NCBI GenBank assembly: GCA_047459275.1
Contig: VSDC01000001.1
Location: 1-38,679, forward strand
Origin: Gemmatimonadota bacterium
GTDB taxonomy: Bacteria > Gemmatimonadota > Gemmatimonadetes > Longimicrobiales > RSA9
Length of the DNA: 38,679 bases
Direction: 5' to 3'
Positions within the stretch are counted from its first letter, which is position 1. Each line of letters starts with the position of its first letter. This document shows positions 7,234 to 38,679 of this stretch, piece by piece. Both the position numbers and the translations under genes were made by a program. A model generated the notes under the pieces. The model made no database searches. It was not told the origin of the DNA and worked only from the letters and a program-made list of their open reading frames with translations.

Positions 7234-7263
7234 GCGCCGCGGGCGCTCGAGCGCCCGCGGCGC
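7234..7263. terminator. Perfect 30-nt GC palindrome between convergent genes (U-tract-less hairpin)
   Basis: GCGCCGCGGGCGC-TCGA-GCGCCCGCGGCGC. All 15 nested pairs were checked by hand. It lies between stop 7129-7131 (+) and stop 7275-7277 (-). Confidence 0.45.
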
Positions 7264-7274
7264 AGCCCCACCGG

Positions 7275-8054
7275 CTAGGCGCTGCGGGCGATCCCGGTCC
7301 CGCCGTCCGGCCGCGCCAGCACCTCGCGCAGGAAGGCGAGCACCACGCGGTCGAAGTCTTCCGGCCGGTCGAATGTGATCCCGTGGCCGGCGCCGTGAAT
7401 CCGGGCCAGCTTCGCGCCCGGGATGCGCCGGATCAACATATCGACGAAGTGGTTCGGCACGACGGGATCGCGCTTGCCGGCCACCACGAGCGTGGGACAG
7501 CGTACGCGGGGGGCGGTGCGGGAGGGTCGGTGTCGCGCCGCGCGAATCCAGGTGCCGAGGAACGCCGTGGGCGAGCCGTGGATGTAGTGCCTGGCCACCA
7601 CTGGCGCCAGCGCGATCGGTTCCCGCCACATGTCCCGGACGAAGCTCCGGAACTGCCTCAGTAGCCGGCACCGGCCGGGCGCGCCGGTGGGCGTGACCAG
7701 CACGAGCGCGCGGGTCCTGGAAGGCGCGAGGACCGCCGCCTCGAGCGTCGCCTGCGCCGCGAGCGAGTGACCCACCCACACCACGCGACCGAGGCCGAGC
7801 TCCGACGCGAGCGCCACGAGCCACTCGGCCGTTTCCGCCACCGACAGCCCGAACCGCGGGCCGGGACTCCGCCCGAAACCGGGCAGGTCGGGCGCCACCG
7901 CCAGGAAGCCCGCTCGCGCGAACGCCTTGCAGTGGCTCCGGAAGAAACCGCCCGACAGCCCGAGCCCGTGCACGAACACGACCGCCGGGCCCGCGCCCGC
8001 CGCGATGTAGCGCGCCGGCCGGCCCGCCACCTCGACCGTTGCCCTACGCAGCAC
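7275..8054 (-). CDS. Alpha/beta-fold hydrolase
   Basis: 259 aa. HGLGLSG oxyanion region, nucleophile elbow GHSLAA, C-terminal GAGHG. GTG start overlaps the upstream paralog by 11 nt. Confidence 0.8.
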   Translation of the reverse strand: MLRRATVEVAGRPARYIAAGAGPAVVFVHGLGLSGGFFRSHCKAFARAGFLAVAPDLPGFGRSPGPRFGLSVAETAEWLVALASELGLGRVVWVGHSLAAQATLEAAVLAPSRTRALVLVTPTGAPGRCRLLRQFRSFVRDMWREPIALAPVVARHYIHGSPTAFLGTWIRAARHRPSRTAPRVRCPTLVVAGKRDPVVPNHFVDMLIRRIPGAKLARIHGAGHGITFDRPEDFDRVVLAFLREVLARPDGGTGIARSA

Positions 8055-15693: not shown

Positions 15694-15722
15694 TTGACGT
15701 CCTCTCCGGCCGCCCTTATCTT
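15694..15722 (+). promoter_or_regulatory. Candidate promoter of the cytochrome c / cupredoxin-like pair
   Basis: TTGACG (15694-15699), 17-nt spacer, TATCTT (15717-15722), 95 nt upstream of ATG 15818. The same hexamer pair recurs at 30636-30665. Confidence 0.45.
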
Positions 15723-15817
15723 CGGCCCCCGGTCCGGCGCCTGGCAGTGCCGGATCGCCCATACGACGTCACGAGCGGGCAGAGCCCGCGAGCTGAATCC
15801 AAGCGAGGAGGACGCCC

Positions 15818-16288
15818 ATGCGCTGGACGAAGAGGACCGCGGGCTTCGCCGCGGTGATGGTGATGGGGATGGGCATGGCTGCGTGCCAGCCGTCCGGGGA
15901 GCAGCCGGCTGCGGAGCAGCAGCAGCAGCCGGCGGCGCAGGCTCCGGCGGCCCAGCCCGCTGCGCCTGCCGAGCTGCCGGCCGGTGTGACGCAGGAGATG
16001 TATGCTCAGGGCCAGGCGCTCTTCACCGGGCAGGGGATCTGCTACACCTGCCACGGGATGAACGCCGAGGGCTCGCAGCTCGCGCCGAACCTGCGCGACG
16101 ACGAGTGGCTGTGGGTCGACCCGGCGCAGGGGAATCTGCAGCAGCAGATCGCCCAGATCATCCGGACGGGCGTCCCGCAGCCGAAGCAGTACCCGGCGCC
16201 GATGCCGCCCATGGCCGGCGTGCAGCTCTCGGACGATCAGATCCAGGCGCTTTCCGCGTACGTGGCCTCGATCGCCGGCACGCAGTGA
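15818..16288 (+). CDS. c-type monoheme cytochrome, lipoprotein
   Basis: 156 aa. Signal/lipobox MGMGMAAC, Gln/Ala/Pro linker, heme motif CYTCH, downstream Met-rich PMPPM (candidate axial ligand). Confidence 0.85.
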   Translation: MRWTKRTAGFAAVMVMGMGMAACQPSGEQPAAEQQQQPAAQAPAAQPAAPAELPAGVTQEMYAQGQALFTGQGICYTCHGMNAEGSQLAPNLRDDEWLWVDPAQGNLQQQIAQIIRTGVPQPKQYPAPMPPMAGVQLSDDQIQALSAYVASIAGTQ

Positions 16289-16291
16289 GTC

Positions 16292-16798
16292 GTGGGCAGC
16301 GGAAGACGGACTCTCGCGTCGGGGCGCTCGCTGCGCGAGCGCCCCGACGTCGTTTGGGCGTTCCTCTGGGCGCTCCTCCTCGCGCTTCCGGCCGCGGCCT
16401 GCAAGGCGCCGCCCCTCGGCGACGGCGGTGAGGTCCTCGAGCTCGAGTCCAGCACCGTGCGGCTCGAGCCGGGCGTCGTCGTGGCGGACGTGGAGCTCGG
16501 CGGGGAGGGCGTGCTCACCCCGGACACGACCCGGATCCGCGTGGGCGACGTCGTGCGCTTCACCGCCGGCGACAGCCGCGCCCACACCGTCGTGTTCGAG
16601 CGGGACCAGATCGACTCCGTCGCCGTCGCATACCTCGACCGTACCGCCCAGCTCCGGAGCCCGCCCCTCCTGACGACCGGCTCGCAGTGGATCGTGAGCT
16701 TCGAGGGCGCGCCGCCCGGGGTCTACCCCTTCGTCGACATCGCGACCGGGGCTCGGGGAGTCGTCCTCGTGGTCGCTCCCGCCACACCCAACCCCTGA
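16292..16798 (+). CDS. Cupredoxin-like domain protein lacking the type-1 Cu ligand loop
   Basis: 168 aa. GTG lies 3 nt after the cytochrome stop. Signal LLLALPAAAC. GDVVRFTAGDSRAHTVVF and PGVYPFVDIATGARGVVLVV resemble the plastocyanin-like strands, but D/T/R replace the C/H/M ligands. Confidence 0.55.
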   Translation: MGSGRRTLASGRSLRERPDVVWAFLWALLLALPAAACKAPPLGDGGEVLELESSTVRLEPGVVVADVELGGEGVLTPDTTRIRVGDVVRFTAGDSRAHTVVFERDQIDSVAVAYLDRTAQLRSPPLLTTGSQWIVSFEGAPPGVYPFVDIATGARGVVLVVAPATPNP

Positions 16799-16855
16799 GC
16801 TCGCCCGGGGCCCGCCCGCTGGCGCCGACTCCGCCGGGCGCCTATACTCCCCGAC

Positions 16856-17911
16856 ATGGCGAGGATCGCAATCATTCCCGGTGACGGCATCGGCATCGAG
16901 GTCACGCGCCAGGCCACCAAGGTGCTCCGCTGCGTCGCGGAGGAATCGGAAATCGAGCTCGAGCTCGTGGAATGGGACCACGGCGCGGATCGCTACCTGC
17001 GCACGGGGGTCGCGATCACGCCCGAGGAGATGGCGGACCTCGAGACGAACTACGACGCCATCCTCCTCGGCGCGCTGGGCGATCCGAGGGTCCCGGACCA
17101 CGCCCACGCGCGTGAGATCCTGCTCGGGCTGAGGTTCCGGCTCGACCTCTACATCAACCTTAGGCCGGTCCGCCTCTACGATCCCCGGTTCTCGCCGCTC
17201 AGGGACGTGCGTCCCGAGGATGTCGACCTCGTGATCTTCCGCGAGAACACCGAGGGACCCTACGTCGGGATGGGCGGCACCTTCAAGAAAGGCACACCCG
17301 ACGAGGTCGCCATCGAGGAGGACATCAACACACGCAAGGGGGTCGAGCGGATCATCCGCGCCGCATTCGAGTTCGCGCACGCCAACGGCCGCCGCCGTGT
17401 CACCCTTGCCGACAAGGCGAACGCAATGCGGCACGTGGGAGGGCTCTGGCGCCGCGTCTTCGAGGAGGTCGGCGCGGAGTACCCGGACGTCGCCCGGGAC
17501 GCCTGGTACATCGACGCCCTCGCCCTCGACCTGGTCCTGCACCCCGCGCGCTACGACGTCATCGTCGCATCGAACCTCTTCGGCGACATCCTGAGCGACC
17601 TCGCGGCCGCGCTCGTCGGCGGGCTCGGGCTCGCCCCCTCGGCGAATCTGCACCCGGGCAAGCCCGGGCTCTTCGAGCCCGTCCACGGCTCGGCGCCCGA
17701 CCTCGCGGGGAAGGACCGCGCGAATCCGCTCGCCGCGATCCTGACCGCGGCGCTCATGCTCGAGCAGCTCGGCTACCCACGCGAGGCGGAGCGCATCGAG
17801 GCGGCAGTCAGGGAATCCATCGCGCAGGGTCGAACCACGCCGGATCTGGGCGGCACGCTCGGCACCGAAGCCGTCGGCGACTGGATCTGCCAGAGGCTCC
17901 GCCAGGCCTAG
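16856..17911 (+). CDS. leuB: 3-isopropylmalate dehydrogenase family (LeuB / tartrate-dehydrogenase-like) oxidative decarboxylase
   Basis: 351 aa. IIPGDGIG, FRENTEGPY, NLFGDILSD and HGSAPDLAGKDRANP are typical of the isocitrate/isopropylmalate dehydrogenase family. No leuCD nearby. Confidence 0.85.
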   Translation: MARIAIIPGDGIGIEVTRQATKVLRCVAEESEIELELVEWDHGADRYLRTGVAITPEEMADLETNYDAILLGALGDPRVPDHAHAREILLGLRFRLDLYINLRPVRLYDPRFSPLRDVRPEDVDLVIFRENTEGPYVGMGGTFKKGTPDEVAIEEDINTRKGVERIIRAAFEFAHANGRRRVTLADKANAMRHVGGLWRRVFEEVGAEYPDVARDAWYIDALALDLVLHPARYDVIVASNLFGDILSDLAAALVGGLGLAPSANLHPGKPGLFEPVHGSAPDLAGKDRANPLAAILTAALMLEQLGYPREAERIEAAVRESIAQGRTTPDLGGTLGTEAVGDWICQRLRQA

Positions 17912-17970
17912 CCGCCCGGCCATTCAACGGGAATCCGCGACGCATGGAGGTGATCGCCGTTCGGTCTAAT

Positions 17971-28622: not shown

Positions 28623-28966
28623 GAATCCGTCGTCGGGCGCTTCAGGCGTGGGAGAACCGTTTCCGTCTGGTGCGGGACGCAGGGCCACGGCTAGCAGACG
28701 ATCGCCGTTCCCCGACTCACGCCCAAGCTGGCGTCCGGGCCGATCCGTGTCAAGCGACGCGGCATCGGTGGAGAGCCCCTCACAGGGCCGTCCTTGACCC
28801 CCGCGCACCCCCGCGTTATGGTAGGGTCACACCGCCGACCACCGGGTGGCGCCGGCGTCGGCGGCACGGCCGACCGCGGCTCCGCGGTCGAGACATAGGA
28901 GATCGCCCCGTGGTTCGCAGCCGCGGGGCGTTCGCGGCCTTGGGGCCCTGTGTCGCCCCGAGCGCC

Positions 28967-29004
28967 AAGAAAAAAGGACTCTCGGCTGGCAACCGAGAGT
29001 CCTT
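28967..29004 (-). terminator. Rho-independent terminator (minus strand)
   Basis: Minus-strand AAGGACUCUCGG-uugccag-CCGAGAGUCCUU, a 12-bp perfect stem. The U tract UUUUUU, whose first two U are the closing stem bases, is followed by CUU. Confidence 0.8.
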
Positions 29005-29044
29005 GTGGTCGATGCGGGTGGCGGCCCGCGGACCTCCGTGGCTG
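28967..29044 (-). ncRNA. Candidate ~77-nt small RNA or terminated leader (promoter-to-terminator unit)
   Basis: Bounded by the TTGACA-N17-TAAACT promoter and a strong intrinsic terminator. It has no start codon or ORF. It contains the GC hairpin GCGGG-CCGCCA-CCCGC and the linker AUCGACCAC. Confidence 0.45.
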
Positions 29045-29050
29045 GAGTCC

Positions 29051-29079
29051 AGTTTATTCGCGAGCCGCCCTCGTGTCAA
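29051..29079 (-). promoter_or_regulatory. Near-consensus sigma70-type promoter (minus strand)
   Basis: Minus-strand TTGACA (29079-29074), exact 17-nt spacer, TAAACT (29056-29051). Predicted TSS about 29043-29044. Confidence 0.5.
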
Positions 29080-29533
29080 GGGAGTCGTGTGCCCTCGACG
29101 CGCGGGCGGCTTCGTTTGTCCGGTCACGGACGCCGCGAACCGCACGCCCCCGACTCCGGACCGGGCTCGCCCGGCCGATAATAAAACGAAGAACCCCGAG
29201 AGTGGCAGCTCCCGGGGTCCACGTGCCGCGCCGCAGGCGGCTCCGGCTTCGGTGGGTGGCACCGCGAAGCTTAGCAAAAACGGGCCTGCGGCGCAAGGGA
29301 TACGTACGTCCTGACAACGCGCCGGGGCCCGATTTCGTTGTCGGGCCCGCGCCCTTGCGCAAAGAGCGCGAGCCCTCCGCCGCATTGCACACCCGGGGCG
29401 ATGATTGCCGGCCGGGGTCTCGAGGTGGAGATCATCGGCTGCCCGCGTGACGTGGCGGCGGGCGCGGGCGCGACGACCGCGATCGCGGCGGAGGGCTCGC
29501 GTGAGGCGCTCACCAGCACACAGGAGGGGAGGA

Positions 29534-30415
29534 ATGGGTACCGCGGCCCGTGCACGGCTCGATGCGTTGATGGAGTTCCCCGGAACCGGGGACCTCTCCC
29601 TCACCCGCGCAATCGTTCGCTACCAAGAAGGGCAGGTGGTGGATGGATCGCACCCGAGCGCCGACGACCTGGGCATCGCCCTCGTCATCGACGGCGAGTA
29701 CGCAGCGGCCGCGGAGGCCATCGAGCTCGGGAGCGGACGGCTGCTGCATCTCGACCTCTCGACCGGCGTCGTGATCCTCGACTGGGTCTATCCCTCCACC
29801 CTGGACTACGTCCGCCTCCTGCTCCGCGCGGTGCGCGACGTCGATTTCGAGGCATCGGCCGACGACACACCGGGAACCTTGCGCGCTTACTGCGAGACGA
29901 TCACCCTCGGCGTGCTCGGGCGGTCCGATTTCGGCTCTCTGGCGCGATCCACCATCCTGCGCCTCGGTTTCCGTGACATCCTGCGCGACCTGGACCCGCA
30001 CGAGGAAGCTGCGGTACGGATTCAGGCCGCGTCGGGCGACCGCATCGAGGTGCGCTTCGATTGCGATGCGAACGCGCTGGTCGTGGTGCGGCGCAGCGGG
30101 GCCGGCGACTCGTATCAGCGCCTTCTGGCTTCCTTGTTTCCCGGGGCTCACCTGCGCGGTGTCCCGATGGTCGGGGGCGTGTGCCACCAGCTCCGCTATC
30201 CGGCCCCCTTCACCCTGGACGATGCGAGGGAGCAGCTCCGCGAGGTGCGCGATGGGCTGCTCGGGCTGGTGGCCACGTACGAGCCGGAACGCTACCGGGC
30301 CATCCGTCAGGCGCTGGACATCTTCGGGCCGCGGGACACGCTCGCCTGGTTGGAACGGGACGTGGTTCCGGCGGTCGACGCGTACCTGACGCAAGCGCCG
30401 GCGGTCGTCGCGTAA
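29534..30415 (+). CDS. Hypothetical protein
   Basis: 293 aa from ATG 29534, preceded by GGAGGGGAGG. Protein-like composition. No family recognised. Confidence 0.55.
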   Translation: MGTAARARLDALMEFPGTGDLSLTRAIVRYQEGQVVDGSHPSADDLGIALVIDGEYAAAAEAIELGSGRLLHLDLSTGVVILDWVYPSTLDYVRLLLRAVRDVDFEASADDTPGTLRAYCETITLGVLGRSDFGSLARSTILRLGFRDILRDLDPHEEAAVRIQAASGDRIEVRFDCDANALVVVRRSGAGDSYQRLLASLFPGAHLRGVPMVGGVCHQLRYPAPFTLDDAREQLREVRDGLLGLVATYEPERYRAIRQALDIFGPRDTLAWLERDVVPAVDAYLTQAPAVVA

Positions 30416-30635
30416 ACATATGATTTTGGTCGAGAGGGAAGGGTGGCGGAGGGCGGCCCGGACGGCTTCACAAGTGGCGGGTGGCAAGGCGGTTCCGCCG
30501 CCCCGGCCCGCCCCCGGCCGCGGGCCTCACACCCGTCTGAAAAGCGCGAAACCTTCCGACTCGACGATCGCGTATATCATTGATTGGCAATAACTTACGC
30601 CTAAGCGATTGCCGCTGCGCCGCTTACGAAAATAC

Positions 30636-30665
30636 TTGACGACCGAGGGGCGCGCACCCTATCTT
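30636..30665 (+). promoter_or_regulatory. Candidate promoter of the small RHH-like gene
   Basis: TTGACG (30636-30641), 18-nt spacer, TATCTT (30660-30665), in an AT-enriched stretch. Confidence 0.4.
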
Positions 30666-30750
30666 GCGCGTCACCCGCAGGTCGGAGCGCAAGCGGTCGG
30701 CTTGCACCGCGGAAGCGACGAACCCCATCCAGAAACTTCCAAATTTTTTC

Positions 30751-30948
30751 ATGCTCGGGGCCGAACGTATGTGGGATACCTGTGCCGTGGAGTTGCGTGT
30801 CCGGCTGCCTCGTGCCGTGGCGGCGGAGGTCGAAGAGGTGCAGCGTAGGGACCCGGAAGTGCTCAGCCGGATCCTGATGTACGGCCTTACGCGGCGGGCG
30901 ATCTTCGAGGAGCTGGCGCGCTCGGATGGGGTCCTCGGCGAGCGGTGA
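30751..30948 (+). CDS. Small ribbon-helix-helix (CopG/Arc-like) DNA-binding protein (predicted)
   Basis: 65 aa from ATG 30751 (alternative ATG 30769). VELRVRLPRAVAAEVEEVQRRDPEVLSRILMYGLTRRAIFEEL fits the beta-strand/helix/turn/helix RHH pattern. No clear SD. Confidence 0.45.
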   Translation: MLGAERMWDTCAVELRVRLPRAVAAEVEEVQRRDPEVLSRILMYGLTRRAIFEELARSDGVLGER

Positions 30949-30957
30949 ACTGTGGGC

Positions 30958-30986
30958 TTGACGCGGGGGTGAGGCGGTCGTAGGGT
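30958..30986 (+). promoter_or_regulatory. Candidate promoter upstream of gene 31078..31542
   Basis: TTGACG (30958-30963), 17-nt spacer, TAGGGT (30981-30986). It is followed by the 7-bp hairpin ACGTGCG-N8-CGCACGT. Confidence 0.3.
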
Positions 30987-31077
30987 AGGAAGCGTGCACG
31001 TGCGTGAGGGTGCGCACGTTGCCATGCTCTGAGGAAGGAGCGGGCGAGCTGTTCATGCGGCGTCGGGTTTGGCGCCG

Positions 31078-31542
31078 ATGAAGGCGTCCTATCCCCCTCA
31101 CCCGGTTCGAGCGATGTCGATTGAACCCGCGGACGAGCGGATTCTGCGGGCCAAGTATCTGGACTGGTGCTCGGCGCGGGTTGCGGATCGGTTCCTGGCG
31201 ATGACGCCGGACCAGATCTACGACCTGGCGCAGGAGTCTCTTCGACGTGATTCCGGCCCCGCGGTCGAAGCGGAGGGCGAAGCTGCAGGGGCGGGGCAAG
31301 CGGCCATGGGCGCCGGAGAGGGCGGCCCCACGCCGTCGCAGGGACAGGACCCCGGTTCGCCGAGCAGAGGCGACGGGGGGGCCTACGGGACCGTGAGCTA
31401 CCGCGAGCTGGTGGCCCGGGTCACGGAGATCCTCGCGGCGCGAGTGGGGTTGCCGACGTTCGAGGCGTGGCTGGCTGAATACGAACGTTCGCCCGAGCAG
31501 TTCGAAGCGGAACTGCTCGGGCTCTGGAAGAAGCGAGCGTGA
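31078..31542 (+). CDS. Hypothetical protein with a central Gly/Ala/Pro-rich linker
   Basis: 154 aa from ATG 31078 (TTG 31069 or ATG 31114 also possible). Structured N- and C-terminal segments. No family recognised. Confidence 0.5.
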   Translation: MKASYPPHPVRAMSIEPADERILRAKYLDWCSARVADRFLAMTPDQIYDLAQESLRRDSGPAVEAEGEAAGAGQAAMGAGEGGPTPSQGQDPGSPSRGDGGAYGTVSYRELVARVTEILAARVGLPTFEAWLAEYERSPEQFEAELLGLWKKRA

Positions 31543-31549
31543 TTCGTGG

Positions 31550-31581
31550 AGCCGTCTCCTTCCTCGAGGAAGGAGACGGCT
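31550..31581. terminator. Perfect 32-nt palindrome filling a convergent gene gap
   Basis: AGCCGTCTCCTTCC-TCGA-GGAAGGAGACGGCT. All 16 nested pairs verified. It lies between stop 31540-31542 (+) and stop 31582-31584 (-). Confidence 0.5.
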
Positions 31582-31806
31582 TCAAGCGTTGTGTCGCCCC
31601 TTGACGCGGGTCTGGTGCCACCAGGTGCCGACAATGGCGACGCAGCCGCCCACGAGGAGCAGAATCCCCACGAGCCCCCAGGCAACGCCCCAGTCGGAAC
31701 GATTGTCGATGAATCCCTGAGCGGCGGACCTGAGGGCCATGATGGCGAGAGCGATCCAGGCCACGCCGATCCCCAGTCCGGCCGCGAAAGCGAGCTTGGT
31801 GATCAT
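31582..31806 (-). CDS. Small two-TM membrane protein
   Basis: 74 aa. Hydrophobic helices LAFAAGLGIGVAWIALAIMAL and VAWGLVGILLLVGGCVAIVGTWW. No family recognised. Confidence 0.5.
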   Translation of the reverse strand: MITKLAFAAGLGIGVAWIALAIMALRSAAQGFIDNRSDWGVAWGLVGILLLVGGCVAIVGTWWHQTRVKGRHNA

Positions 31807-31923
31807 CTCGTCGGCTTTTCCGTGTATCCGGGCATCCCAAACGATCGTGAAACGACCAGCACGGGCAATATAGCCGGTCTCCGGGGTGCGGCAAGGGATT
31901 GCGCCCCGGGACGAAAGCCGCCA

Positions 31924-31951
31924 TTGTAACCAATGGGCCTTAGTGTAGTAA
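31924..31951 (+). promoter_or_regulatory. Candidate promoter with overlapping palindrome
   Basis: TTGTAA (31924-31929), 16-nt spacer, TAGTAA (31946-31951). The palindrome CCATTG-taac-CAATGG (31921-31936) overlaps the -35. ATG 31971 lies 20 nt downstream. Confidence 0.3.
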
Positions 31952-31970
31952 CCTCAACCCGGAGGCGAAG

Positions 31971-32228
31971 ATGGCGGTTACCGGCGCGTTGCTCCCCGAG
32001 GGGACGCGCGTGAGGATCCGGCGCGGGCCGTTGCCCCTGGATCCTGCCGCGATCGGACGGGAAGGGACGATAGTGGAGTCGAGCGAATACCACGCGCACC
32101 GGTACGGGGTGCTGCTGGATGGGGATGCGGAGGCGCGGTTCTTTACGCCGGAAGAACTCGAGGTGATCGATGCGCCGGCGCTTTCACCAGCTCGGGAGGA
32201 GGCCAAGCAGCGGCGGGCGCTTCCATAG
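31971..32228 (+). CDS. Small hypothetical protein (beta-rich, SH3/KOW-like pattern)
   Basis: 85 aa. GGAGG lies 5 nt upstream of the ATG. No family recognised. Confidence 0.55.
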   Translation: MAVTGALLPEGTRVRIRRGPLPLDPAAIGREGTIVESSEYHAHRYGVLLDGDAEARFFTPEELEVIDAPALSPAREEAKQRRALP

Positions 32229-32390
32229 GTGTTCGTCTGGACGGAGATGGGGCTTCGGGCGGGCCGGTCGCTGCAGCGACCGGCCCGCCTTCTTCATCTT
32301 CGTGTCGGCATCTTCGTTTCGGCCGCCGGGCGTCCTGGCGGAACGGATAGTGCAATAGTGGGTCGGGGGACCGTGGCGGGAGGAGAGAAC

Positions 32391-32939
32391 ATGGCGCAAG
32401 AGAGCAGGGCCGAGTCGGTGACCGGGCGCCCGGATGCCGAGCGGGTGCGCACGGCCGAACCGGCGACCACGGACGAGGCCCGGCGGGCGATCGAGGAAAC
32501 GAGGGGGCGCATCTCGGCTACCCTGGACGAGATCGAGGGCCGAATCGAGGAAGCTCGCGAGAACATCCGGGAGAAGGTGGATGTGACGCGACCCATCCGG
32601 AACCGGTTGCGGGAGCATCCGCTGCCGGGGATCGGGATCGTGTTCGGCGCAGGTCTCGTGCTCGGGTTGCTGACGGGCGGCAAGGAAAAGGAAGGGAAGC
32701 ATCGCGAGATGCCCGGCAAGGAGGAGCGCGAAGAGCTCCGCCGGTGGCGTGCGGAGCGCCGCGAACGCCTGCGCGAGCACGGCCGCCGGCGGGAGCGGGG
32801 TGCCAGAGGGCCATCCTTCATTCGCCAAACGGCCGGTCTGGTGGCGAGCGCGGCCCTCGCCGGGTTGATGACGCGGGTGCGCCGGAGGATCACGGGCGAG
32901 GGCCGTCCTGAGTCGCGTGAACTCCGGGCCGCCGCGTAA
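32391..32939 (+). CDS. DUF3618/YqjD-like membrane-anchored protein (predicted)
   Basis: 182 aa from ATG 32391 (SD GGAGGAGAG). N-terminal TRGRISATLDEIEGRIEEARENI helix, TM segment LPGIGIVFGAGLVLGLLTG, Arg/Glu-rich tail. Confidence 0.55.
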   Translation: MAQESRAESVTGRPDAERVRTAEPATTDEARRAIEETRGRISATLDEIEGRIEEARENIREKVDVTRPIRNRLREHPLPGIGIVFGAGLVLGLLTGGKEKEGKHREMPGKEEREELRRWRAERRERLREHGRRRERGARGPSFIRQTAGLVASAALAGLMTRVRRRITGEGRPESRELRAAA

Positions 32940-32957
32940 GAGCGATACCACACATCC

Positions 32958-32986
32958 GGCGCGTCGGGGTCGATCCTCGACGCGCC
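32958..32986 (+). terminator. Hairpin downstream of gene 32391..32939
   Basis: GGCGCGTCG-N11-CGACGCGCC, a 9-bp stem extendable to 12 bp. It starts 19 nt after the stop. The tail GTTCCTCGTT is only weakly U-rich. Confidence 0.4.
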
Positions 32987-33003
32987 GTTCCTCGTTGCAG
33001 CGT

Positions 33004-33054
33004 CGACAACGGACCCGACCGCCTCTTGCTCGGAGAGGGCCGGGTCCGTTGTCG
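33004..33054. repeat. Long inverted repeat (14-bp perfect arms)
   Basis: CGACAACGGACCCG ... CGGGTCCGTTGTCG, with inner CCTCT/AGAGG pairing. It sits in a 395-nt ORF-free gap. Confidence 0.6.
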
Positions 33055-33334
33055 AAGCGGGGCCGCGATGCAGCCTCGGAGCGGCGAGAACGGAACGGCG
33101 TCGTCTGACGGATCTCCGCGTCGCTCTACCTTCTTGCCGTCGTACGACCGCTGCCGCGCCGCCCGGTGACGGTTCCGCTGTCGGAGAGGCGCGGGTGGAC
33201 TTCCGACCAGGTCGGCGGGCGACTACGTTGTTTCCCGTGTGCGAGTTTCTCCATCTCGGACGTTGGCTCTACGACGTCACGCCGTCCGCCGAAGACCGGC
33301 GGACATCCGTCGAAGACAGAACGAGACCGGTCGT

Positions 33335-34219
33335 ATGGGCCACAACCCCTTCCTGGAACCCGCGCGCCGCGCCTCGCCGCGTAGCGGCGCGAGGGCTGCG
33401 AGATCGATCGCGGCGTCGGTAGCCCTCCTTCTCGTCTTTGTGTTCGCCTCGCCGCACGAGGCCGCGGCGCAGGGCAAGGGTCACGGGCATCCCGCCTGGG
33501 TCTCCGACATCGCGGTGGCGAGCGCCAACATCGTGGTCGGCGGTGTGACCGCCGCAGTCACGGCGCTGATCCGCGGTGAGGATGTATCGGAAGCGTTCCT
33601 GAAGGGAGCCGCGGGTGGCGGAGTGGTGTTCGCCGGGAAACGGGTCGCCGCCGAGCGGTTCGACGGGGCGGGTTTGCTCGGCCGCCAGATCGCGAGCGTC
33701 GGATCCAGCATGGTCGCGGACGCCGGGCTGGGCCGCGACCTGTTCACGGAAATCTGGCTTCCGTTGGGGCCGGTGTGGGTCCAGGTGAGACCGGAGGCGC
33801 GCTGGCGCGCACGGGTGAACCTCCACGACGTGGGCAGCGTCATCTGGGCGGCCACGAGGCCCGAGCTGAGATTCGATCTCGGCCGATCGTTGTCCAACGG
33901 AGCGCCGGTGTTCGTGGCCGACCAGCACCTGATCCTCGTAGATGGAGAAGTCGCATTCGGCTTCGCCGTCGGCGGCACCGTGGTGATCGGCGGGACCGCC
34001 AGGGATGCCGAGCGCGTTCAGCGCCACGAGAACATCCACGTGCTACAGCACGATTATTTCGTGATGACCGTGACCAGGCGGGTGGAGCGTTGGGTGTGGC
34101 GCCGGCTGACGACTCGAGAGATCCCGCTCGACTTCGGCTTTCCCGCGGCTCTCATCTCATTGGTGTCCTGGGACAATACCCTGCTGCAAAGTGAGGCGGA
34201 GGTATTCGAGTCGCGATGA
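33335..34219 (+). CDS. Secreted protein with an HExxH motif (possible metallopeptidase-like)
   Basis: 294 aa from ATG 33335. Signal peptide IAASVALLLVFVFASPHEAAAQ and HENIH near the C-terminus. No family recognised. Confidence 0.5.
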   Translation: MGHNPFLEPARRASPRSGARAARSIAASVALLLVFVFASPHEAAAQGKGHGHPAWVSDIAVASANIVVGGVTAAVTALIRGEDVSEAFLKGAAGGGVVFAGKRVAAERFDGAGLLGRQIASVGSSMVADAGLGRDLFTEIWLPLGPVWVQVRPEARWRARVNLHDVGSVIWAATRPELRFDLGRSLSNGAPVFVADQHLILVDGEVAFGFAVGGTVVIGGTARDAERVQRHENIHVLQHDYFVMTVTRRVERWVWRRLTTREIPLDFGFPAALISLVSWDNTLLQSEAEVFESR

Positions 34220-34866
34220 GAACGAGGTTCTGGTTGGCCCTCCCGATCGCAGCCCTCGCCGCATGCAACATCGATTTCGTGGCCGTGGAGGGCGATTCCG
34301 GATCGGGGGATGAGGGTGCGTCGGCGGTACTTCACGTCGACAATAGGAACGGCCTGGTGGCCATCCTGCAGGTCGTACTTCCGGGGACCTCGGAACCTCC
34401 GGTCGTGTTCGTCGGGGGAGCCGCTCTGCAAGGAGTCGCGCGGGATGACGGCCGTTGGGCCTTCGACACGGTGGTTGCCGTGGACACGCTCGACCCGCGC
34501 CTCGAGCTGGAGATTCGGACCGACGAAGTGGTGGTGGTGCCTTTCGTCTTTTTCGCCCGCAACGGGCCCGCGACCCGGAGAGAGAACGGCGATCTCGAGG
34601 TCCCGTTGGTGTACGGGGGCGACCGGCCCGACTCCAACCTGTGGTGGCAGGTGCACCTGCTGGACTCGAACGAGAGGCCGTTGCTCACCGTGCATTCCCT
34701 AACGGCCGAGTTGCCCGACCCGCTTGTGATCAGCGGAGCCCTCGTTCCTCCGACCGCCGTCGCCGCGCTGGTCGAGTCAGTCCGATCCGAGAGAATCGCA
34801 GGGGCCCCATACGTGATCCACGCTCATTCGCAGAGCACCATCAGGGTTCCGATCGAGGGAGAATAG
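34216..34866 (+). CDS. Hypothetical lipoprotein, translationally coupled (ATGA)
   Basis: 216 aa. Lipobox LPIAALAAC. Its ATG overlaps the stop of the previous gene. Confidence 0.55.
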   Translation: MRTRFWLALPIAALAACNIDFVAVEGDSGSGDEGASAVLHVDNRNGLVAILQVVLPGTSEPPVVFVGGAALQGVARDDGRWAFDTVVAVDTLDPRLELEIRTDEVVVVPFVFFARNGPATRRENGDLEVPLVYGGDRPDSNLWWQVHLLDSNERPLLTVHSLTAELPDPLVISGALVPPTAVAALVESVRSERIAGAPYVIHAHSQSTIRVPIEGE

Positions 34867-34915
34867 TGCCTTCGCTCCGGGAATGGTGCCCTCACTCTGC
34901 GAGACGGCACGATCG

Positions 34916-36229
34916 TCACCGGTTCGGCCCGGCCGCGGCTCCGTGGCGCTTGAGGGGCATGGGCGAGCCCGCGGGTTTCGGGAGCCGGATCACGTCGTCG
35001 ATCGCGCCGCTCGCCACATCGATCACGACCAGCGTCATCGATGTCCCGTCATGCCAATCGCGCGGGGAAAAGCCGCTGGCGAAGAGGCAATTGGCGTAAC
35101 CGAACAGGGCGGTCACGGTGGGAACGCAGCGCGGGAAGGGGGTGTTTCGCGCGTCTTCCCGCATCCCTTCTTCGATGTCCTTCGGGCTCGCGCTTTCGAG
35201 GAGCTTCCGCGCAGCCTCACCTGCACTCACCACGTAACTGGCGTTGAACCATTTCGCACCGTGGATCCGGTCCTCCAGCGTGATCTCGACACGGTCTCCG
35301 GGCAAGCGGATAACGAGATCAGGGGCGCCGGAGAACCAGCGAACGGTAATGCTGCTCAAGTCTCGGTGGCCGATGGCGGACCACCCGTCGCCGGTGGTCC
35401 AGACCGGGCGACCGGAGTACAGCGGCTGGGCGTATAGCGGATATCCGCCCGGCACCGGGGCCGGCATCCACACGTCCGTCGCGGTTCCGGACACCGCCGC
35501 GAGGGTGTCCCGGACCGTTGCGTCCAGGCCGTACCGGATCAGATGGGCGGGCGGTGACGGAAAGCTTGTGGGCTGCCGAAGGTCTAGGCTGTCCAGCTCG
35601 TTGAACTGAATGAGATGGACGAACCCGCTGTCGCCGAGGGCCACGAGTCTGCGGGTGACGTCTTTCGGGCCGTGCTAATCGCGTGGGCCGTAGACGCTCG
35701 TGGTCGGTTGCCGATAAGGAATTCGAGGCCAATCTCCGGGTACCTGCGCGCCGCTCGTCGCGAGCACCTTGTCGGTCGTGTCGAACACGGTGAACGTCAG
35801 GCTCGGCGAGTCCTGCCGCGCCACCAGCACCCCGCCCACCGCCTCGAGCGCCCAGGGGGCCCTGAACTCGCCCGGGCCGTCGCCTTCGCGGCCAATGCGG
35901 CGAACCAGGGATCCGGCGGCGTCGAACAGCAGGATCTGCTTCTCCATGCGGTCGAAAACGGCGAACCGGCCGTCCGGGAGGACCGCGACGTCGGTCACGG
36001 ATCCGAACCACAAAGTGTCTTCACCGCCGATCCGCTGGTCCGATCGCAGCGATGTTGCCTCGACCGCGCCGGCCGCTACGTCTACGAGCGAGTGCGACAA
36101 CGTGAGGACCCGGGTGCCGTTCAGCTCCTCCACAAACCCGGTCAGCTCCCCGGTCCGGCGAGGCTCGCCCGAGCCGCAACCCGCAAGGACGCCGATCGCA
36201 AGGAGCCCTATCGCGCCATGCTTTCTCAT
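34916..36229 (-). pseudogene. 6-bladed beta-propeller family lipoprotein interrupted by one in-frame TAG
   Basis: ORFs 35675..36229 and 34916..35644 share one frame. They are separated only by TAG (35675-35677) plus 10 sense codons (HGPKDVTRRL). Lipobox GVLAGC, family-like GDGPGEF motif. No SD precedes the second part. Confidence 0.6.
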
Positions 36230-36861
36230 CGGCTTCGGTTTTCGAGTGCGTATTGGGTGACGTTCGGAAAGAGAGGGGCAGGGTACAGAGTCGTCGCCCC
36301 CTGTATGCTGCCCCCGAGAAAGTTACTCCGGTTCCGTTGCCGTCACAGTGAGCGGTCCGAGTCAACAAAGAGTTACCCGGTGTCGGAGCGCCTCCATATG
36401 TCCATAAATGAATGGAAGTTCAGGGTCTGTGGCTAGTAGGGAATGGTGGAATCAATACTACGGGGCTGCCATGCGACGCCATCGGAACGAATGATTGGCG
36501 CTGCGGCATCGAAGAACGAGCACCTCCATCATTGCTGCGCCACCCAGAGGCCGGCATGACGCACACCGGCAGCGCTGATCCGCTTGGTGAGACACTCTGC
36601 TTAAGCTTAACCGGCTCCTTACCAAATTGAGAATGGCGAGCACTAACTTGCTTCTCGGCGAAATCACAAGGGAGCCCTTTGGCGGAAAAATCGCCGGTCT
36701 CTCAAGAATGGATCGCGCGATCGGCGTCGACGGACGCCGAGGGCCGCTCGGAGTTGTCCGCGGTGGTAATCGGCACCGCAAGCAAGCGCAGAAAGAACAT
36801 CGCGTAAACCAACGCATCAGAGGAGGGAAGAGAGGTTGCTACAACGGGTTGCAGAAAAGTC

Positions 36862-36890
36862 TTGACGACTTTTTCAAGCCACATTATCCA
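36862..36890 (+). promoter_or_regulatory. Candidate promoter of the small peptide gene
   Basis: TTGACG (36862-36867), 17-nt spacer, TATCCA (36885-36890), about 88 nt upstream of ATG 36978. Confidence 0.35.
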
Positions 36891-36977
36891 TGGCCAAGCT
36901 CCGGCACCGGGCACAGCCCTTCATTTGGAGCAGTCCTCTTGTCCCATGTCCCTTTTCACCAGAAAGGAGGCAATGGT

Positions 36978-37115
36978 ATGAGAAGGACGAAGATGTTGCT
37001 CGGTGGGCTGGCAGCAGCCTCTGTCCTCGCCGTCCTCCCATTCACCACCACTTCTACGGCCCCCGTGGGTGTCAATGATGCATGTGCGCAGAGTGGTGCC
37101 TCCTGCTGTCCCTAG
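36978..37115 (+). CDS. Small secreted Cys-containing peptide (45 aa as written; 75 aa if TAG 37113 is read through)
   Basis: AAGGAGG (36964-36970) lies 7 nt before the ATG. Sequence MRRTKMLLGGLAAASVLAVLPFTTTSTAPVGVNDACAQSGASCCP*. The in-frame continuation is AGATCFYQGECSGWGPWKKCPDPIEKTNSY, ending at TAA 37206-37208. Confidence 0.55.
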   Translation: MRRTKMLLGGLAAASVLAVLPFTTTSTAPVGVNDACAQSGASCCP

Positions 37116-37249
37116 GCTGGGGCCACCTGCTTCTACCAGGGTGAGTGTTCCGGATGGGGACCGTGGAAGAAATGCCCTGACCCGATTGAGAAGACTAATT
37201 CGTACTAAGCGGGCAGTGGGGGGTGTGAAATCAAGCCCGAGTGATGTTG

Positions 37250-37286
37250 ATGGCTGCCAGGCTGGCGTACCTAGCCTGGCAGCCAT
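37250..37286 (+). terminator. Hairpin downstream of the peptide gene
   Basis: ATGGCTGCCAGGCT-N9-AGCCTGGCAGCCAT, a 14-bp perfect stem followed by TCTT. It lies 41 nt after the extended-frame TAA. Confidence 0.5.
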
Positions 37287-37455
37287 TCTTGCCCAATGTA
37301 TGCCCTCGGGTTTCGACGGCCCCGCGGGTAATATTATCAGCCTCCGTCAAAGTAGCGCAGCTCACTGGTAGGGGAGACTGATTGTCGATCCCCCTGGGGA
37401 TCGGCTGCGCTGTTATCACGAGATAGGCAGCTCGACCGCCAGATACGGGTGTGCT

Positions 37456-38568
37456 ATGTCAACGGGACGGTGGACTCTTCTATTGGCTTTGTTATTCTTC
37501 TTGGGGTGCAACGCCGATGCGTCGTCGACCCACTTCCCCGGCTACGGCCCGCCCCCTGACCAGGACCTGAGCTATGACGCCTTCCGGGTCGATACCGTCA
37601 CGGGCACCACCATCCTCGATTCGACCCATGTTGAAAATCCATATGACCTCGCCGTCTCGGCCGGCCGCCTATTCGTCCTCGAGCAGTACCCGCCACCTGT
37701 GCTACGGGTTGTAGAGATCGGGACGTGGAGAGTCGAGAGCCAGGCAGGCCGACAAGGCCAAGGTCCCGGTGAGGTGATGGTGCCTTGGCGGGTGTTTGTC
37801 GGACCGAACGGCGCTCCCTGGATATACGATTCAGGGCAACGTCGCATCGTCAGGCTTTATCAGATAGACACGACGGGGGCGCTTCGGCCGGATGAGGAGA
37901 CGATAAACCTGGAGTCCCCTTTCCCAATCAAATCCATAAGGTGGCTCACCGACACCACTCTGGTAGCCAACGGTTTCTTCGACGACGAGCGATTCGGCCT
38001 CTTCCGGGCGGATGGCAAGCTTCTCAAGCATTTTGGCGGAGTTCCCGAGTGGCCCGGACCGGTCGCGCTTCCCTTCCGCAACCACTTCAATGAGGTCGAG
38101 ATCGCGGTCCATCCGTCTCGTGAACTCTTCGTGGCTGCAAAGCGGCACACGAGCGAGATCGAAATCTTGGATTTCGACGGGAAGCTCAAGGTTCTCGTCA
38201 AGACACCCTTCGATTTCAGATCCAGTGTCAATATCACCTCGACCGGGCAGGGCTATGGTCTCAGCTGGGATTCAAGTTGGCGACAGGGGTACATCGACGT
38301 TGCCGCGACCGAGGATCGCATCTTCGCGCTCTTCTCGGGAAGGACGCTCGGACGGTACGGCAGCGATGCCGCGTACGGCGAGTACGTGCATGTTTTCGAC
38401 TGGGAGGGGGAATTACATCGCATCTTGCGGCTCGACATGGACGCCTTCGCACTCGCTGTAGAGAAGAATAACTCGGTATTCTACACGGTCAGCTATGACG
38501 ACGCTCGGCCTGTCGTCAGACGCTACGAACTCACTTCGTCGGGATCCCTGATTGTGCTGTCTCAGTAG
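37456..38568 (+). CDS. 6-bladed beta-propeller family lipoprotein (BF3164/DUF5128-like)
   Basis: 370 aa. Signal/lipobox LLLALLFFLGC, GQGPGEV motif, repeated blade-like strands (RLFVLEQ, RIVRLYQID, EIEILDFDG, RIFALFSG, VHVFDWEG, VFYTVSYDD). G+C is clearly lower than in the core genes. Confidence 0.7.
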   Translation: MSTGRWTLLLALLFFLGCNADASSTHFPGYGPPPDQDLSYDAFRVDTVTGTTILDSTHVENPYDLAVSAGRLFVLEQYPPPVLRVVEIGTWRVESQAGRQGQGPGEVMVPWRVFVGPNGAPWIYDSGQRRIVRLYQIDTTGALRPDEETINLESPFPIKSIRWLTDTTLVANGFFDDERFGLFRADGKLLKHFGGVPEWPGPVALPFRNHFNEVEIAVHPSRELFVAAKRHTSEIEILDFDGKLKVLVKTPFDFRSSVNITSTGQGYGLSWDSSWRQGYIDVAATEDRIFALFSGRTLGRYGSDAAYGEYVHVFDWEGELHRILRLDMDAFALAVEKNNSVFYTVSYDDARPVVRRYELTSSGSLIVLSQ

Positions 38569-38679
38569 GCGAATTCACGTACACACTGCGTTGTCCGTGC
38601 TTGCACCGGATATCAGCGTATCCCGGTGGAACATGTACACCTGGCAAACCTAGGCTGATATTTCACAAGGAGAGGACAT

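Follow-up and report, generated by a model that had tools for sequence, protein, structure and literature searches.

A small cysteine-rich peptide gene paired with a beta-propeller lipoprotein gene carries loss-of-function alleles in Gemmatimonadota

The closest described counterparts of the locus analysed here are the NVEALA cassettes of the Bacteroidales, in which a gene for a small peptide (Pfam family PF14055), which we take from the Pfam description to be roughly 75–88 amino acids long, is found next to genes for six-bladed beta-propeller lipoproteins. This adjacency, pointed out when the locus was first annotated, can be seen on the Phocaeicola massiliensis plasmid OY726023.1, where a single locus contains six ORFs encoding NVEALA peptides of 74–84 amino acids, all of which match PF14055. 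Five of the six lie directly upstream of a lipoprotein gene, and four of these lipoproteins are of the propeller type. A search of the literature on NVEALA, BF3164, PF15869 and DUF5128 yielded nothing useful, no paper in the library searched making mention of NVEALA or characterising BF3164.

The locus described here lies on a MAG contig from a Gemmatimonadota (Longimicrobiales-like) host. The window (the whole 38,679-nucleotide stretch of DNA that was analysed) carries a small peptide gene on a low-GC accessory stretch and, in agreement with the adjacency proposed in the initial annotation, propeller lipoprotein genes are found on both sides of it, matching PF17170 upstream and PF15869 downstream. 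The features of the locus are as follows.

34916–36229, minus strand: gene for a DUF5128/NHL-repeat propeller lipoprotein, 437 codons, divergent, with an amber stop at codon 185 (35675–35677, CAG to TAG)
36862–36890, plus strand: candidate sigma70-like promoter, TTGACG-N17-TATCCA, as read from the sequence
36909–36923, plus strand: sigma54-like element GGGCACAGCCCTTCA, with a good -24 element (GGCAC) and a non-canonical -12 element (TTCA for TTGC)
36964–36970, plus strand: Shine-Dalgarno sequence AAGGAGG, 7 nt before the ATG
36978–37244, plus strand: peptide gene, 88 codons plus TGA, with Tyr46 changed to amber (TAG 37113–37115) and Tyr77 to ochre (TAA 37206–37208)
37218–37223, plus strand: run of six G residues in codons 81–82 of the peptide gene
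37250–37286, plus strand: 14-bp perfect hairpin (arms 37250–37263 and 37273–37286), candidate terminator or attenuator
37456–38568, plus strand: intact gene for a BF3164-family/TolB-like six-bladed NHL-type propeller lipoprotein (PF15869)

Direct reading of the sequence confirms a 45-codon ORF running from ATG 36978 to the TAG at 37113–37115, followed by 30 open codons up to the TAA at 37206–37208. Past this TAA the frame is open for 11 more codons, as far as TGA 37242–37244, giving a full unit of 88 codons. The proposal that the frame was ancestrally coding beyond the TAG is borne out by orthologues that have TAC (Tyr) at this position, but the ancestral form is 88 amino acids long rather than the 75 that were suggested, the TAA being a derived nonsense mutation at Tyr77 with the invariant Cys83 located beyond it. 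Intact 88-amino acid orthologues continue through the TAG position rather than ending there, and it is because homologues share the frame beyond the TAG, not because of its length, that this frame can be considered more than chance. An even total of six cysteines had been put forward in support of the 75-residue form, an argument that fails because the full 88-residue product has seven. Comparison of the window gene with its P0003 orthologue gives a dN/dS of 0.35 at a dS of 0.88. In the window, the 88-codon gene for this small, putatively exported Cys-rich peptide (36978–37244) is present as a loss-of-function allele, rather than as an instance of recoding, with two third-position transversions, TAC (Tyr46) to TAG and TAT (Tyr77) to TAA. 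The window strain would be able to make only a 45-residue stub without the invariant Cys51 and Cys83, with the downstream propeller gene intact, and peptide function would therefore be lost. No paralogues of the peptide were found within the window, and an antisense ORF (36921–37286) was rejected as a real gene, being interrupted in three homologous loci and not conserved.

Intact alleles are much the commoner in public assemblies. The protein cluster includes intact 88-amino acid forms on more than 190 contigs; P0001 (88 amino acids) and ten Logan contigs, at 99.2–99.5% nucleotide identity, have TAC and TAT at the two stop positions, whilst P0086, found on 86 contigs, is the intact form on the window's own G9/V16 background. 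Across 36243–38424, the window differs from all three of the contigs L001, L011 and L012 at the two stops and nowhere else. Many Logan contigs break around the peptide gene, which points to mixed strains within single samples. These breaks and the greater abundance of intact alleles would sit comfortably with the stops being assembly or sequencing errors in an organism that in reality has an intact 88-codon gene, but we find this scarcely credible. An independently assembled JGI contig (Ga0079224_100023513, here L111), which is of the R9 background and 99.7% identical to the window over 8.8 kb with 22 mismatches elsewhere, has the identical TAG and TAA together with the amber codon in the DUF5128 gene, and its 45-amino acid product is on record as P0085. 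Because this contig has both the TAG and the TAA, the two stops can be taken as real alleles.

Other lesions are found in the same gene. In L011 and L012, TGC is changed to TGA at codon 43, whilst P0091 and P0098, which represent two different backgrounds, are 83-amino acid alleles that both end in SGGV immediately before a stop and ahead of the invariant Cys83. Judging from their protein sequences and the DNA of the window, these probably result from a frameshift, and insertion of a single G (+1) in the six-G run at codons 81–82 would explain them. At least four independent disruptive alleles are therefore present in this 267-nt gene among contigs that are at least 97.6% identical, and nonsense changes account for three of the seven substitutions in the gene where 4.4% would be expected (P = 0.0026). 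Like the ordinary nonsense pseudogenes and segregating loss-of-function alleles of bacterial populations, these alleles are derived, arose by changes of one base (at Tyr, Cys and Gln codons), are at minority frequency and differ in their lesions between sister lineages; what sets them apart is their unusually high density in the peptide gene. The internal amber codon alone is an ordinary segregating nonsense allele. That the disrupted alleles are in the minority can be accounted for by weak purifying selection, acting on an accessory gene, just as well as by selected loss.

The occurrence of three premature stops (TAG, TAA and TAG) in two adjacent genes might also be explained by programmed read-through or suppression, in which an ochre/amber suppressor tRNA inserting Tyr, or else a leaky context, allows synthesis of the 88-residue peptide and the full DUF5128 protein, with the stops serving as a translational throttle. 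Both stops in the peptide gene replace Tyr codons, such that the wild-type sequence would be recovered with a supC-like tRNA-Tyr, and two diverged contigs, one of the R9 and one of the G9 background, both retain the double-stop allele. Tyr codons, however, offer the commonest one-step path to TAA or TAG; the stops are derived, in the minority and conserved in no homologue; and the sister lineage has a TGA and a frameshift instead. Neither a credible suppressor tRNA nor an Rfam recoding element was found in the window: Rfam identified no tRNA there and the single ARAGORN call ('tRNA-???' at 7190–7285) is doubtful and lacks Rfam support. Genome-wide reassignment of TAG was rejected, TAG being the terminator of the accepted ORFs at 4151–4720 and 7182–7664, and the window's coding frames otherwise showed no in-frame stop. 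Nothing thus favours the initial suggestion that an extended form is the real product by way of read-through, the TAG and TAA being derived minority alleles, and we regard programmed recoding as highly improbable.

Nor do we think it at all likely that the truncated product itself, with a mature form of ~16–17 residues (PVGVNDACAQSGASCCP, 3 Cys), has gained a function of its own as a short peptide. Such a peptide would be in keeping with the untouched promoter, Shine-Dalgarno sequence and start codon and with the presence of the allele in two diverged contigs, but it would lack the invariant Cys51, Tyr76/77 and Cys83 and the whole of the CSGWGPW block. The second stop, the TGA that lies three codons earlier in the sister lineage and the frameshift alleles all point to decay, not to a selected end point, and the partner DUF5128 gene is broken as well.

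The 88-residue product belongs to a new peptide family that has no Pfam or NCBIfam model. Scans of all forms of the peptide against Pfam, NCBIfam and PADLOC gave no match, and a profile search of the PDB with the family gave nothing. Only five clusters of the family turn up among 1.8 billion representatives, and synteny adds two distant members; peptides of 80 and 82 amino acids encoded at Longimicrobium BF3164 loci align with the family in hhalign with probabilities of 83% and 96.8%. Its members are 80–96 amino acids long and follow a common pattern, with a signal-like N-terminus, the motif (V/I/L)N(D/E/V)ACA, CC-x6-C, an optional CSGWGPWxxC insert and YY..GG.C. Cys36, 43, 44, 51 and 83 are invariant in the family alignment (A1), although the most distant member, included in a second alignment (A5), is without Cys36. 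The cysteine count is odd, with seven in the window-type product and five in shorter members. The signal-like N-terminus noted initially consists of MRRTK followed by a 15-residue hydrophobic stretch, and the putative n-, h- and c-regions, delineated by eye, are MRRTK, MLLGGLAAASVLAVL and PFTTTSTA/PV (the slash marking the predicted cleavage site). A lipobox at the conserved Cys36 (context NDAC) does not fit. An AlphaFold model of the peptide, built from a 5-sequence alignment, had a pLDDT of 53.5 and was not used. Scanning GTDB species genomes with the peptide profile revealed no relatives, so that the cassette appears to be missing from GTDB representative genomes, including those of relatives with PBP2 proteins 86–93% identical. 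Matches in viral contigs were confined to the 10-residue CSGWGPWxxC segment, in giant-virus proteins resembling thrombospondin-type repeats, and were judged coincidental.

How does this family relate to NVEALA? The initial annotation loosely likened the stretch VNDACAQ to the NVEALA motif of small Bacteroidota peptides; the host is a member of the Gemmatimonadota, not of the Bacteroidota. In both kinds of cassette the gene just ahead of that for a PF15869/PF17170 propeller lipoprotein specifies a peptide of ~75–95 amino acids; its N-terminus is hydrophobic, a short conserved motif lies some 35–45 residues along the chain, and the C-terminal portion is variable and contains Cys. The window family falls within the NVEALA description as far as length and hydrophobic N-terminus are concerned. 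The proximity to BF3164/six-bladed propeller genes, which is a habit of NVEALA genes and not part of the Pfam definition, is likewise seen in the window. The propellers are homologous across phyla, that of the window matching a Phocaeicola propeller encoded after an NVEALA gene with an E-value of 9e-10. Thiol-redox-type genes also recur, as a DsbA-like gene in one distant Longimicrobium locus (L113) and a 'redoxin domain-containing protein' gene in Chondrinema (L119). The FCB group takes in both Gemmatimonadota and Bacteroidota, and with this relationship, the equal position of the peptide genes ahead of homologous PF15869 lipoproteins, the similar peptide lengths (74–84 versus 80–96 amino acids) and a motif at a similar distance from the N-terminus, one might view the window peptide as a highly diverged but true member of PF14055, with VN(D/E)ACA as the cognate of NVEALA.

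Profile searches argue against this. None of nine family sequences (the 45-residue form, the read-through form, P0001, P0003–P0006 and the two members found by synteny) matches PF14055 (gathering score 27 bits) at E ≤ 10, whereas all six Phocaeicola peptides used as positive controls do so, with values of 1e-13 to 3e-15. Comparing the family profile (A5) with that of NVEALA (A4) in hhalign gives a probability of 23.9%, confined to 14 N-terminal columns and leaving the motif unaligned. The two groups thus have no detectable sequence or profile similarity, and they differ too in that the window family has the motif VN(D/E)ACA followed by CC-x6-C...C, and in that the window contains a single cassette in a high-GC Gemmatimonadota host in place of the tandem arrays of Phocaeicola. 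The assignment of VNDACAQ to NVEALA does not survive these comparisons and true membership of PF14055 is, in our view, improbable.

The downstream propeller lipoprotein matches PF15869 with an E-value of 5.5e-19 (69.1 bits against a cutoff of 29.2) and is named by NCBI as a BF3164 family lipoprotein (MFS8636470.1). Its sequence includes the lipobox FFLGC and no other cysteine beyond it. The AlphaFold model (pLDDT 92.7) has a propeller fold and its best matches by TM-score in a Foldseek search of the PDB are six-bladed NHL domains; that search returned only generic NHL and WD40 propellers and no functional clue. The N-terminal fragment of the divergent DUF5128 gene product scores 33 bits against PF17170 (cutoff 22.9), and the gene has NHL-repeat matches in the PDB with E-values down to 2.9e-15. 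L011 and L012 retain CAG at the position of the amber codon seen in the window and in L111, but have a +1 frameshift near window position 35435.

A PF15869 gene is located directly downstream of the peptide gene at the P0001, P0003, P0004 and P0005 loci; the peptide gene opens a conserved cassette of two genes, the second encoding the BF3164/TolB-like propeller lipoprotein. Not every BF3164 homologue has a peptide partner, because there is no peptide upstream at the P0083 locus and the 170-amino acid ORF upstream at the P0012 locus is unrelated. The propeller is full length in all 15 of the cluster members listed. Strong purifying selection on the propeller within the population was rejected, as its variable sites comprise 12 non-synonymous and four synonymous, and its retention alongside loss of the peptide and DUF5128 genes is not statistically secure (the probability that none of five hits falls in the propeller is 0.07 by target size).

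The regulatory elements identified initially, namely TTGACG at 36862–36867, TATCCA at 36885–36890 after a 17-nt spacer and AAGGAGG at 36964–36970, are all present. A consensus promoter scan made no call for TTGACG-N17-TATCCA because TATCCA lacks the final T. At the P0003 locus (L019), which is 63% identical to that of the window, the -35 block GTCTTGAC (with TCTTGAC), the first two bases of the -10 element (TA) and the Shine-Dalgarno sequence are kept whilst the flanks of the promoter have diverged. The sigma54-like element GGGCACAGCCCTTCA also sits in a conserved block common to L019, but it is not a canonical sigma54 promoter (GGGCAC-N5-TTCA, that is GG-N10-CA) and there is no bEBP gene nearby. 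Canonical elements (TGGCAC-N5-TTGC) are found 72 and 98 nt before the ATG in the distant members L025 and L013/L014, each with a sigma54 activator (bEBP) gene upstream. The 14-bp hairpin is a perfect inverted repeat, as first described, but begins only 6 nt after the true stop (TGA 37242–37244), and not 41 nt after the gene end as had been thought. Its RNA has a dG of -33.2 kcal/mol (z = -5.2 against shuffles), and in L019 the P0003 gene is followed at the corresponding place by a hairpin of different sequence. A scan for intrinsic terminators did not call the hairpin, because it is not followed by a T-run (the tail in the window is TCTTGCCC), and Rfam gave no match in or around the peptide locus.

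Taken together, these results lead us to a joint reading that we consider likely: a loss-of-function allele within a peptide–propeller cassette that encodes a putatively exported disulfide peptide with its cognate binder. The precursor would be exported by Sec and cleaved near TSTA/PV (a site placed by eye), and the ~59-residue product would be oxidised in the periplasm. The mature peptide would then act outside the cytoplasm together with the cognate propeller lipoprotein, which would bind it. Transcription may be under sigma54/bEBP control in some lineages, and in the window clade the hairpin after the peptide gene would set the ratio of peptide to propeller transcripts. Our best guess is of a bacteriocin-like or signalling peptide with a cognate binder/immunity lipoprotein, the role of the propeller being one that we only infer.

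A RiPP-type system would assign the components differently. In this scheme, the N-terminus up to VNDACA would be a leader, and the propeller, possibly with its DUF5128 paralogue, would not be a binder or immunity protein but a maturation or scaffold enzyme acting on a Cys/Trp-rich core to modify or process it. Hairpins after the precursor gene are typical of RiPP operons, the cysteine count is odd, and in NVEALA peptides a conserved half resembling a leader, at the N-terminus, is followed by a Cys-rich C-terminus that is hypervariable. The fold matches include a peptide-processing enzyme with a six-bladed NHL domain, peptidyl-alpha-hydroxyglycine lyase (3fvz). The N-terminus of the window peptide looks, however, like an ordinary Sec-type signal (basic n-region and 15-residue hydrophobic core), not a cytoplasmic leader, and export is expected for both partners. 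The loci looked at contain no radical-SAM enzyme, cyclase, protease or ABC exporter; the immediate neighbours of family members are limited to propeller lipoproteins, a DsbA-like protein or a bEBP. A maturase left without its substrate should decay too, and the propeller is intact in every allele listed. We therefore view a RiPP system as unlikely, if worth keeping in mind, and retain the reading of an exported peptide with a cognate binder.

Two further types of system bear comparison. Class II bacteriocin and toxin–immunity pairs similarly place an envelope protein gene directly after that of a small exported disulfide peptide, and the location in an accessory low-GC region, the polymorphic peptide alleles and the repeated loss of the peptide with the partner intact recall bacteriocin loci with 'orphan immunity'. 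The window family differs in having no double-glycine leader, ABC exporter or known immunity fold, and an immunity role for the 370-amino acid propeller lipoprotein would be pure inference. In QHNDH (gamma/beta) and MADH (light/heavy), a small periplasmic Cys/Trp polypeptide is encoded beside a beta-propeller protein, but those propellers are seven-bladed and are not lipoproteins, and a radical-SAM enzyme, MauG or haem partners are required in those systems. A small subunit of this type was rejected, cofactor-maturation genes being absent from every locus seen and a PDB profile search revealing no sequence similarity.

The strict synteny that ties this peptide family to BF3164 propellers offers a second, independent entry to the role of propeller lipoproteins. 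Searching by genomic position uncovers small-ORF partners of PF15869 genes that sequence searches overlook, and the occurrence of knock-out and intact alleles in near-identical strains constitutes a natural test set. The cassette architecture is common to NVEALA loci, with repeated cassettes in one Bacteroidales locus that we looked at. It is possible, and we suggest it only tentatively, that cassettes of peptide followed by BF3164 propeller belong to one widespread extracytoplasmic peptide system of the FCB superphylum, in which a disulfide peptide is secreted and the propeller binds it specifically as an immunity protein or receptor; NVEALA may be the Bacteroidales version and the VN(D/E)ACA...CC...C family the Gemmatimonadota version. 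If this is so, the repeated, independent knock-out of the peptide and DUF5128 genes with BF3164 kept would represent a social loss in which production is given up while protection or sensing is retained.

The peptide gene lies on the forward strand between genes for two propeller lipoproteins. The features of the locus are listed below, the signals and reading frames as read in the sequence and the DUF5128/NHL gene as assigned by family and PDB matches.

36229→34916 (-), DUF5128/NHL lipoprotein gene, 437 codons
36862-67 and 36885-90 (+), promoter candidate, TTGACG and TATCCA separated by 17 nt
36964-70 (+), Shine-Dalgarno sequence AAGGAGG
36978 (ATG) to TAG 37113-15 (+), 45-codon ORF, MRRTK...SCCP
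from TAG to TAA 37206-08 (+), 30 further open codons
from TAA to TGA 37242-44 (+), 11 further open codons, AGSGGCEIKPE
37218-37223 (+), G6 homopolymer, codons 81-82 of the peptide gene
37250-63/37273-86 (+), perfect 14-bp inverted repeat, 6 bases after the TGA
37456-38568 (+), BF3164-type lipoprotein gene, lipobox FFLGC, PF15869 TolB_like (69 bits)

The promoter, Shine-Dalgarno sequence, ATG, TAG, 30 open codons, TAA and hairpin reported in the initial annotation are all present, as is the propeller context it proposed (PF15869 gene downstream, DUF5128 gene upstream). It had the product end at the TAA, giving 75 amino acids whose even cysteine count (six) was taken as an argument for this form; the same frame stays open for 11 codons more, to the TGA, and the complete 88 amino acid product has seven cysteines, an odd number. 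As RNA, the hairpin has a folding energy of -33.2 kcal/mol (z = -5.2 against shuffles). A consensus scanner called neither the promoter at 36862-90 nor a terminator at the hairpin, and there are no Rfam matches in the window, the peptide locus included.

A search of the read-through product against 5.8 billion proteins identified P0001, an 88 amino acid protein that is 96% identical across the whole query and has tyrosine at both stop positions. Ten Logan contigs that encode P0001 share 99.2-99.5% DNA identity with window 35808/36815-38679, with TAC at 37113-15 and TAT at 37206-08; with tyrosine codons at both sites in the orthologues, the proposal that the extension beyond TAG is ancestral holds. 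Intact 88 amino acid alleles occur on >190 contigs in the protein cluster, 86 of which carry P0086, which is intact on the Gly9/Val16 background that the window also has. Scanning JGI metagenomes for an exact pattern identified a further contig, L111 (Ga0079224_100023513), that is 99.7% identical to window 28937-37741 (22 mismatches) and has the same TAG and TAA together with Arg9 in place of Gly9. The allele with both stops is thus genuine and long-standing, old enough to occupy two backgrounds.

Other lesions are found in the same gene. Two contigs (L011, and L012 = JGI Ga0131851_1001339), 97.7-97.8% identical to the window, retain TAC and TAT but carry TGC→TGA at codon 43; across window 36243-38424, the two stops are the sole positions differing from all of these and a third near-identical contig, L001. 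Two 83 amino acid alleles in the cluster (P0091 and P0098, on two haplotype backgrounds) end in ...SGGV, removing the invariant Cys83. These would be explained by one additional G (G7) in the G6 run at 37218-23, which would mean slippage-prone inactivation or possibly a homopolymer assembly error. The cluster also includes a 57 amino acid form. Across 20 sequences of the 267-nt gene, the seven variable sites comprise four missense, three nonsense and no synonymous changes; because just 4.4% of possible substitutions are nonsense, finding at least three in seven has P = 0.0026. Many independent Logan contigs begin or end at ~36815 and 37176-37245, at the polymorphic peptide gene edges and hairpin, which suggests that alleles co-exist within single samples.

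An in-frame amber codon might instead point to a recoded gene. Elsewhere in the window, however, TAG serves as a normal stop; it ends other ORFs, and apparent same-frame ORF chains are separate genes. The one tRNA call made there by ARAGORN (7190-7285, -, a 96-nt 'tRNA-???' whose anticodon has two bases) has no Rfam tRNA at gathering score and most likely represents a false call within the region occupied by ORF 7182-7664. Recoding was rejected on these grounds: since the stops derive from tyrosine codons, TAG is an ordinary stop and no tRNA has Rfam backing, the gene in the window is a loss-of-function allele and the hint of a real read-through product was mistaken. The amber codon is in itself ordinary. 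At 15818-17911 (+), three ORFs share one reading frame with a single TGA between each; by sequence appearance they resemble a lipoprotein of cytochrome c type, a second small protein with an exported look and an enzyme of the isocitrate/isopropylmalate dehydrogenase family, and look like separate genes rather than one recoded gene. The long antisense ORF at 15716-17923 (735 amino acids) has no Pfam hit and is unlikely to be a true gene.

When 1.84 billion representatives were scanned with HMMER, only four relatives beyond P0001 emerged: P0003 (96 amino acids, 63% identity), P0004 (86 amino acids), P0005 (92 amino acids) and P0006 (80 amino acids). A profile search added none to these, and a pattern scan identified none in GTDB species representatives. 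All five members have a basic and hydrophobic N-terminus, and Cys36, Cys43, Cys44, Cys51, a tyrosine at 76/77 and Cys83 are invariant in their alignment, with CSGWGPWxxC in three or four of the five. With residues such as Cys51 and Cys83 invariant, TAG removes three invariant cysteines; TAA, which Cys83 lies beyond, removes one. Comparison of the P0001 and P0003 genes gives dN/dS of 0.35 at dS 0.88 (0.21 for their propellers). Judged from these sequences, the peptide gene is real and its ancestral product is 88 amino acids long. An antisense ORF at 36921-37286 was rejected as a gene because three homologous loci do not keep it open. Just upstream of the P0006 gene, at two contig starts (L016 1-176, L017 ~100-115), are long tracts that are poly-G or G-rich; sequencing or assembly artefact is the probable cause, with a phase-variable tract a lesser possibility. 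The CSGWGPWRRC seen in giant-virus proteins (L121-L123, position 3001-3030, in a thrombospondin-repeat-like context, WRSCSGWGPWRRCSVNC) was judged coincidental in its likeness to the peptide's CSGWGPWKKC.

The peptide gene is accompanied by a propeller gene in its relatives also. At the P0003, P0004 and P0005 loci a PF15869 homologue (with 67%, 34% and 39% identity, respectively, to the one in the window) lies directly downstream. The P0005 and P0004 loci each encode a sigma54 activator (with, at P0005, a DUF5128-like gene), and in both the canonical sequence TGGCAC-N5-TTGC occurs ahead of the ATG, at distances of 72 and 98 nt. The window and the P0003 locus have in common a conserved block, GGGCACAGC-NN-TTCA, in which the -24 element is good and the -12 non-canonical, a conserved TCTTGAC -35 block and a strong hairpin of differing sequence directly after the stop codon. 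Small ORFs are also found upstream of distant Longimicrobium BF3164 homologues (31-34% identity). Chosen by position alone, these include unannotated peptides of 82 amino acids (locus L115 5768-7152; ...LNVACAQ...GTCCPEPRSLC...NYYYRRAGGC) and 80 amino acids (locus L113/L114 1981-4012; followed by the propeller and then a DsbA-like thioredoxin gene), which were not found by HMMER and score hhalign probabilities of 96.8% and 83%, respectively, against the family profile. Two other BF3164-homologue loci examined have no such upstream peptide.

The initial annotation had also suggested kinship with the NVEALA peptides (PF14055), stating that these neighbour propeller genes. In a tblastn search of plasmids, the window propeller matched an unannotated Phocaeicola massiliensis record (OY726023.1; 23.5% identity, E 9e-10) in which six small ORFs at 111322-128173 all match PF14055 (1e-13 to 3e-15), in five cases with a lipoprotein gene directly downstream (four PF15869/PF17170/DUF4221-type, one DUF1573). 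The adjacency stated in the annotation is thus accurate, and the two phyla have homologous propellers. The N-terminal halves of these NVEALA peptides are nearly identical and their cysteine-rich C-termini hypervariable. The proposed membership, however, did not stand: no member of the peptide family matches PF14055, and profile-profile comparison with the NVEALA set was negative (24% probability over 14 N-terminal columns). The cassettes share an architecture, whereas the peptides belong to separate families.

The window spans the whole of a 38,679-nt contig from a Gemmatimonadota MAG at NCBI, and MAGs of Gemmatimonadaceae and Longimicrobiales encode PBP2 proteins 86-93% identical to its own. 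Because GC content is low in the last 2.7 kb (0.58-0.60 at 36000-38679 versus 0.65-0.77 elsewhere), and the pattern scan of GTDB species representatives returned no peptide relatives though close PBP2 relatives are present, this region resembles an accessory or acquired island. The 37456-38568 product, named 'BF3164 family lipoprotein' at NCBI, gives a confident propeller model (pLDDT 92.7) that, ranked by TM-score, is matched best in the PDB by six-bladed NHL domains. In both the window and L111, codon 185 of the DUF5128 gene has become an in-frame amber (CAG→TAG, 35675-77); L011 and L012 keep CAG and have a +1 frameshift near window 35435. As the two pairs carry different lesions in both genes, the peptide and DUF5128 genes have been broken independently in two lineages. 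The BF3164 alleles listed are all full length, with 12 non-synonymous and four synonymous variable sites within the population; the contrast with the two broken genes is suggestive only (zero of five hits by target size, P = 0.07). Adjoining the propeller locus, L011 has ~1.1 kb of other DNA in place of the strain-variable 2 kb at window 32939-34929, encoding a 326 amino acid ORF and a 216 amino acid lipoprotein-like ORF, neither with a Pfam hit.

The intact peptide would be exported by Sec, cleaved near TSTA|PV and given its disulfides in the periplasm; it may then act jointly with the propeller, which would bind it specifically. The favoured reading, at rather low confidence, pairs a bacteriocin-like or signalling peptide with an immunity or receptor lipoprotein; its main functional rival gives the propeller a role in RiPP-style maturation. 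In the window strain, to go by the gene sequence, the 45 amino acid stub would be the only product possible. More widely, a small, exported-looking cysteine peptide gene under purifying selection is linked with one for a propeller lipoprotein, in a cassette that is in some loci under sigma54 control and in some joined by a DsbA-like gene; the family, and its synteny-defined tie to BF3164 lipoproteins, is a new but modest finding.
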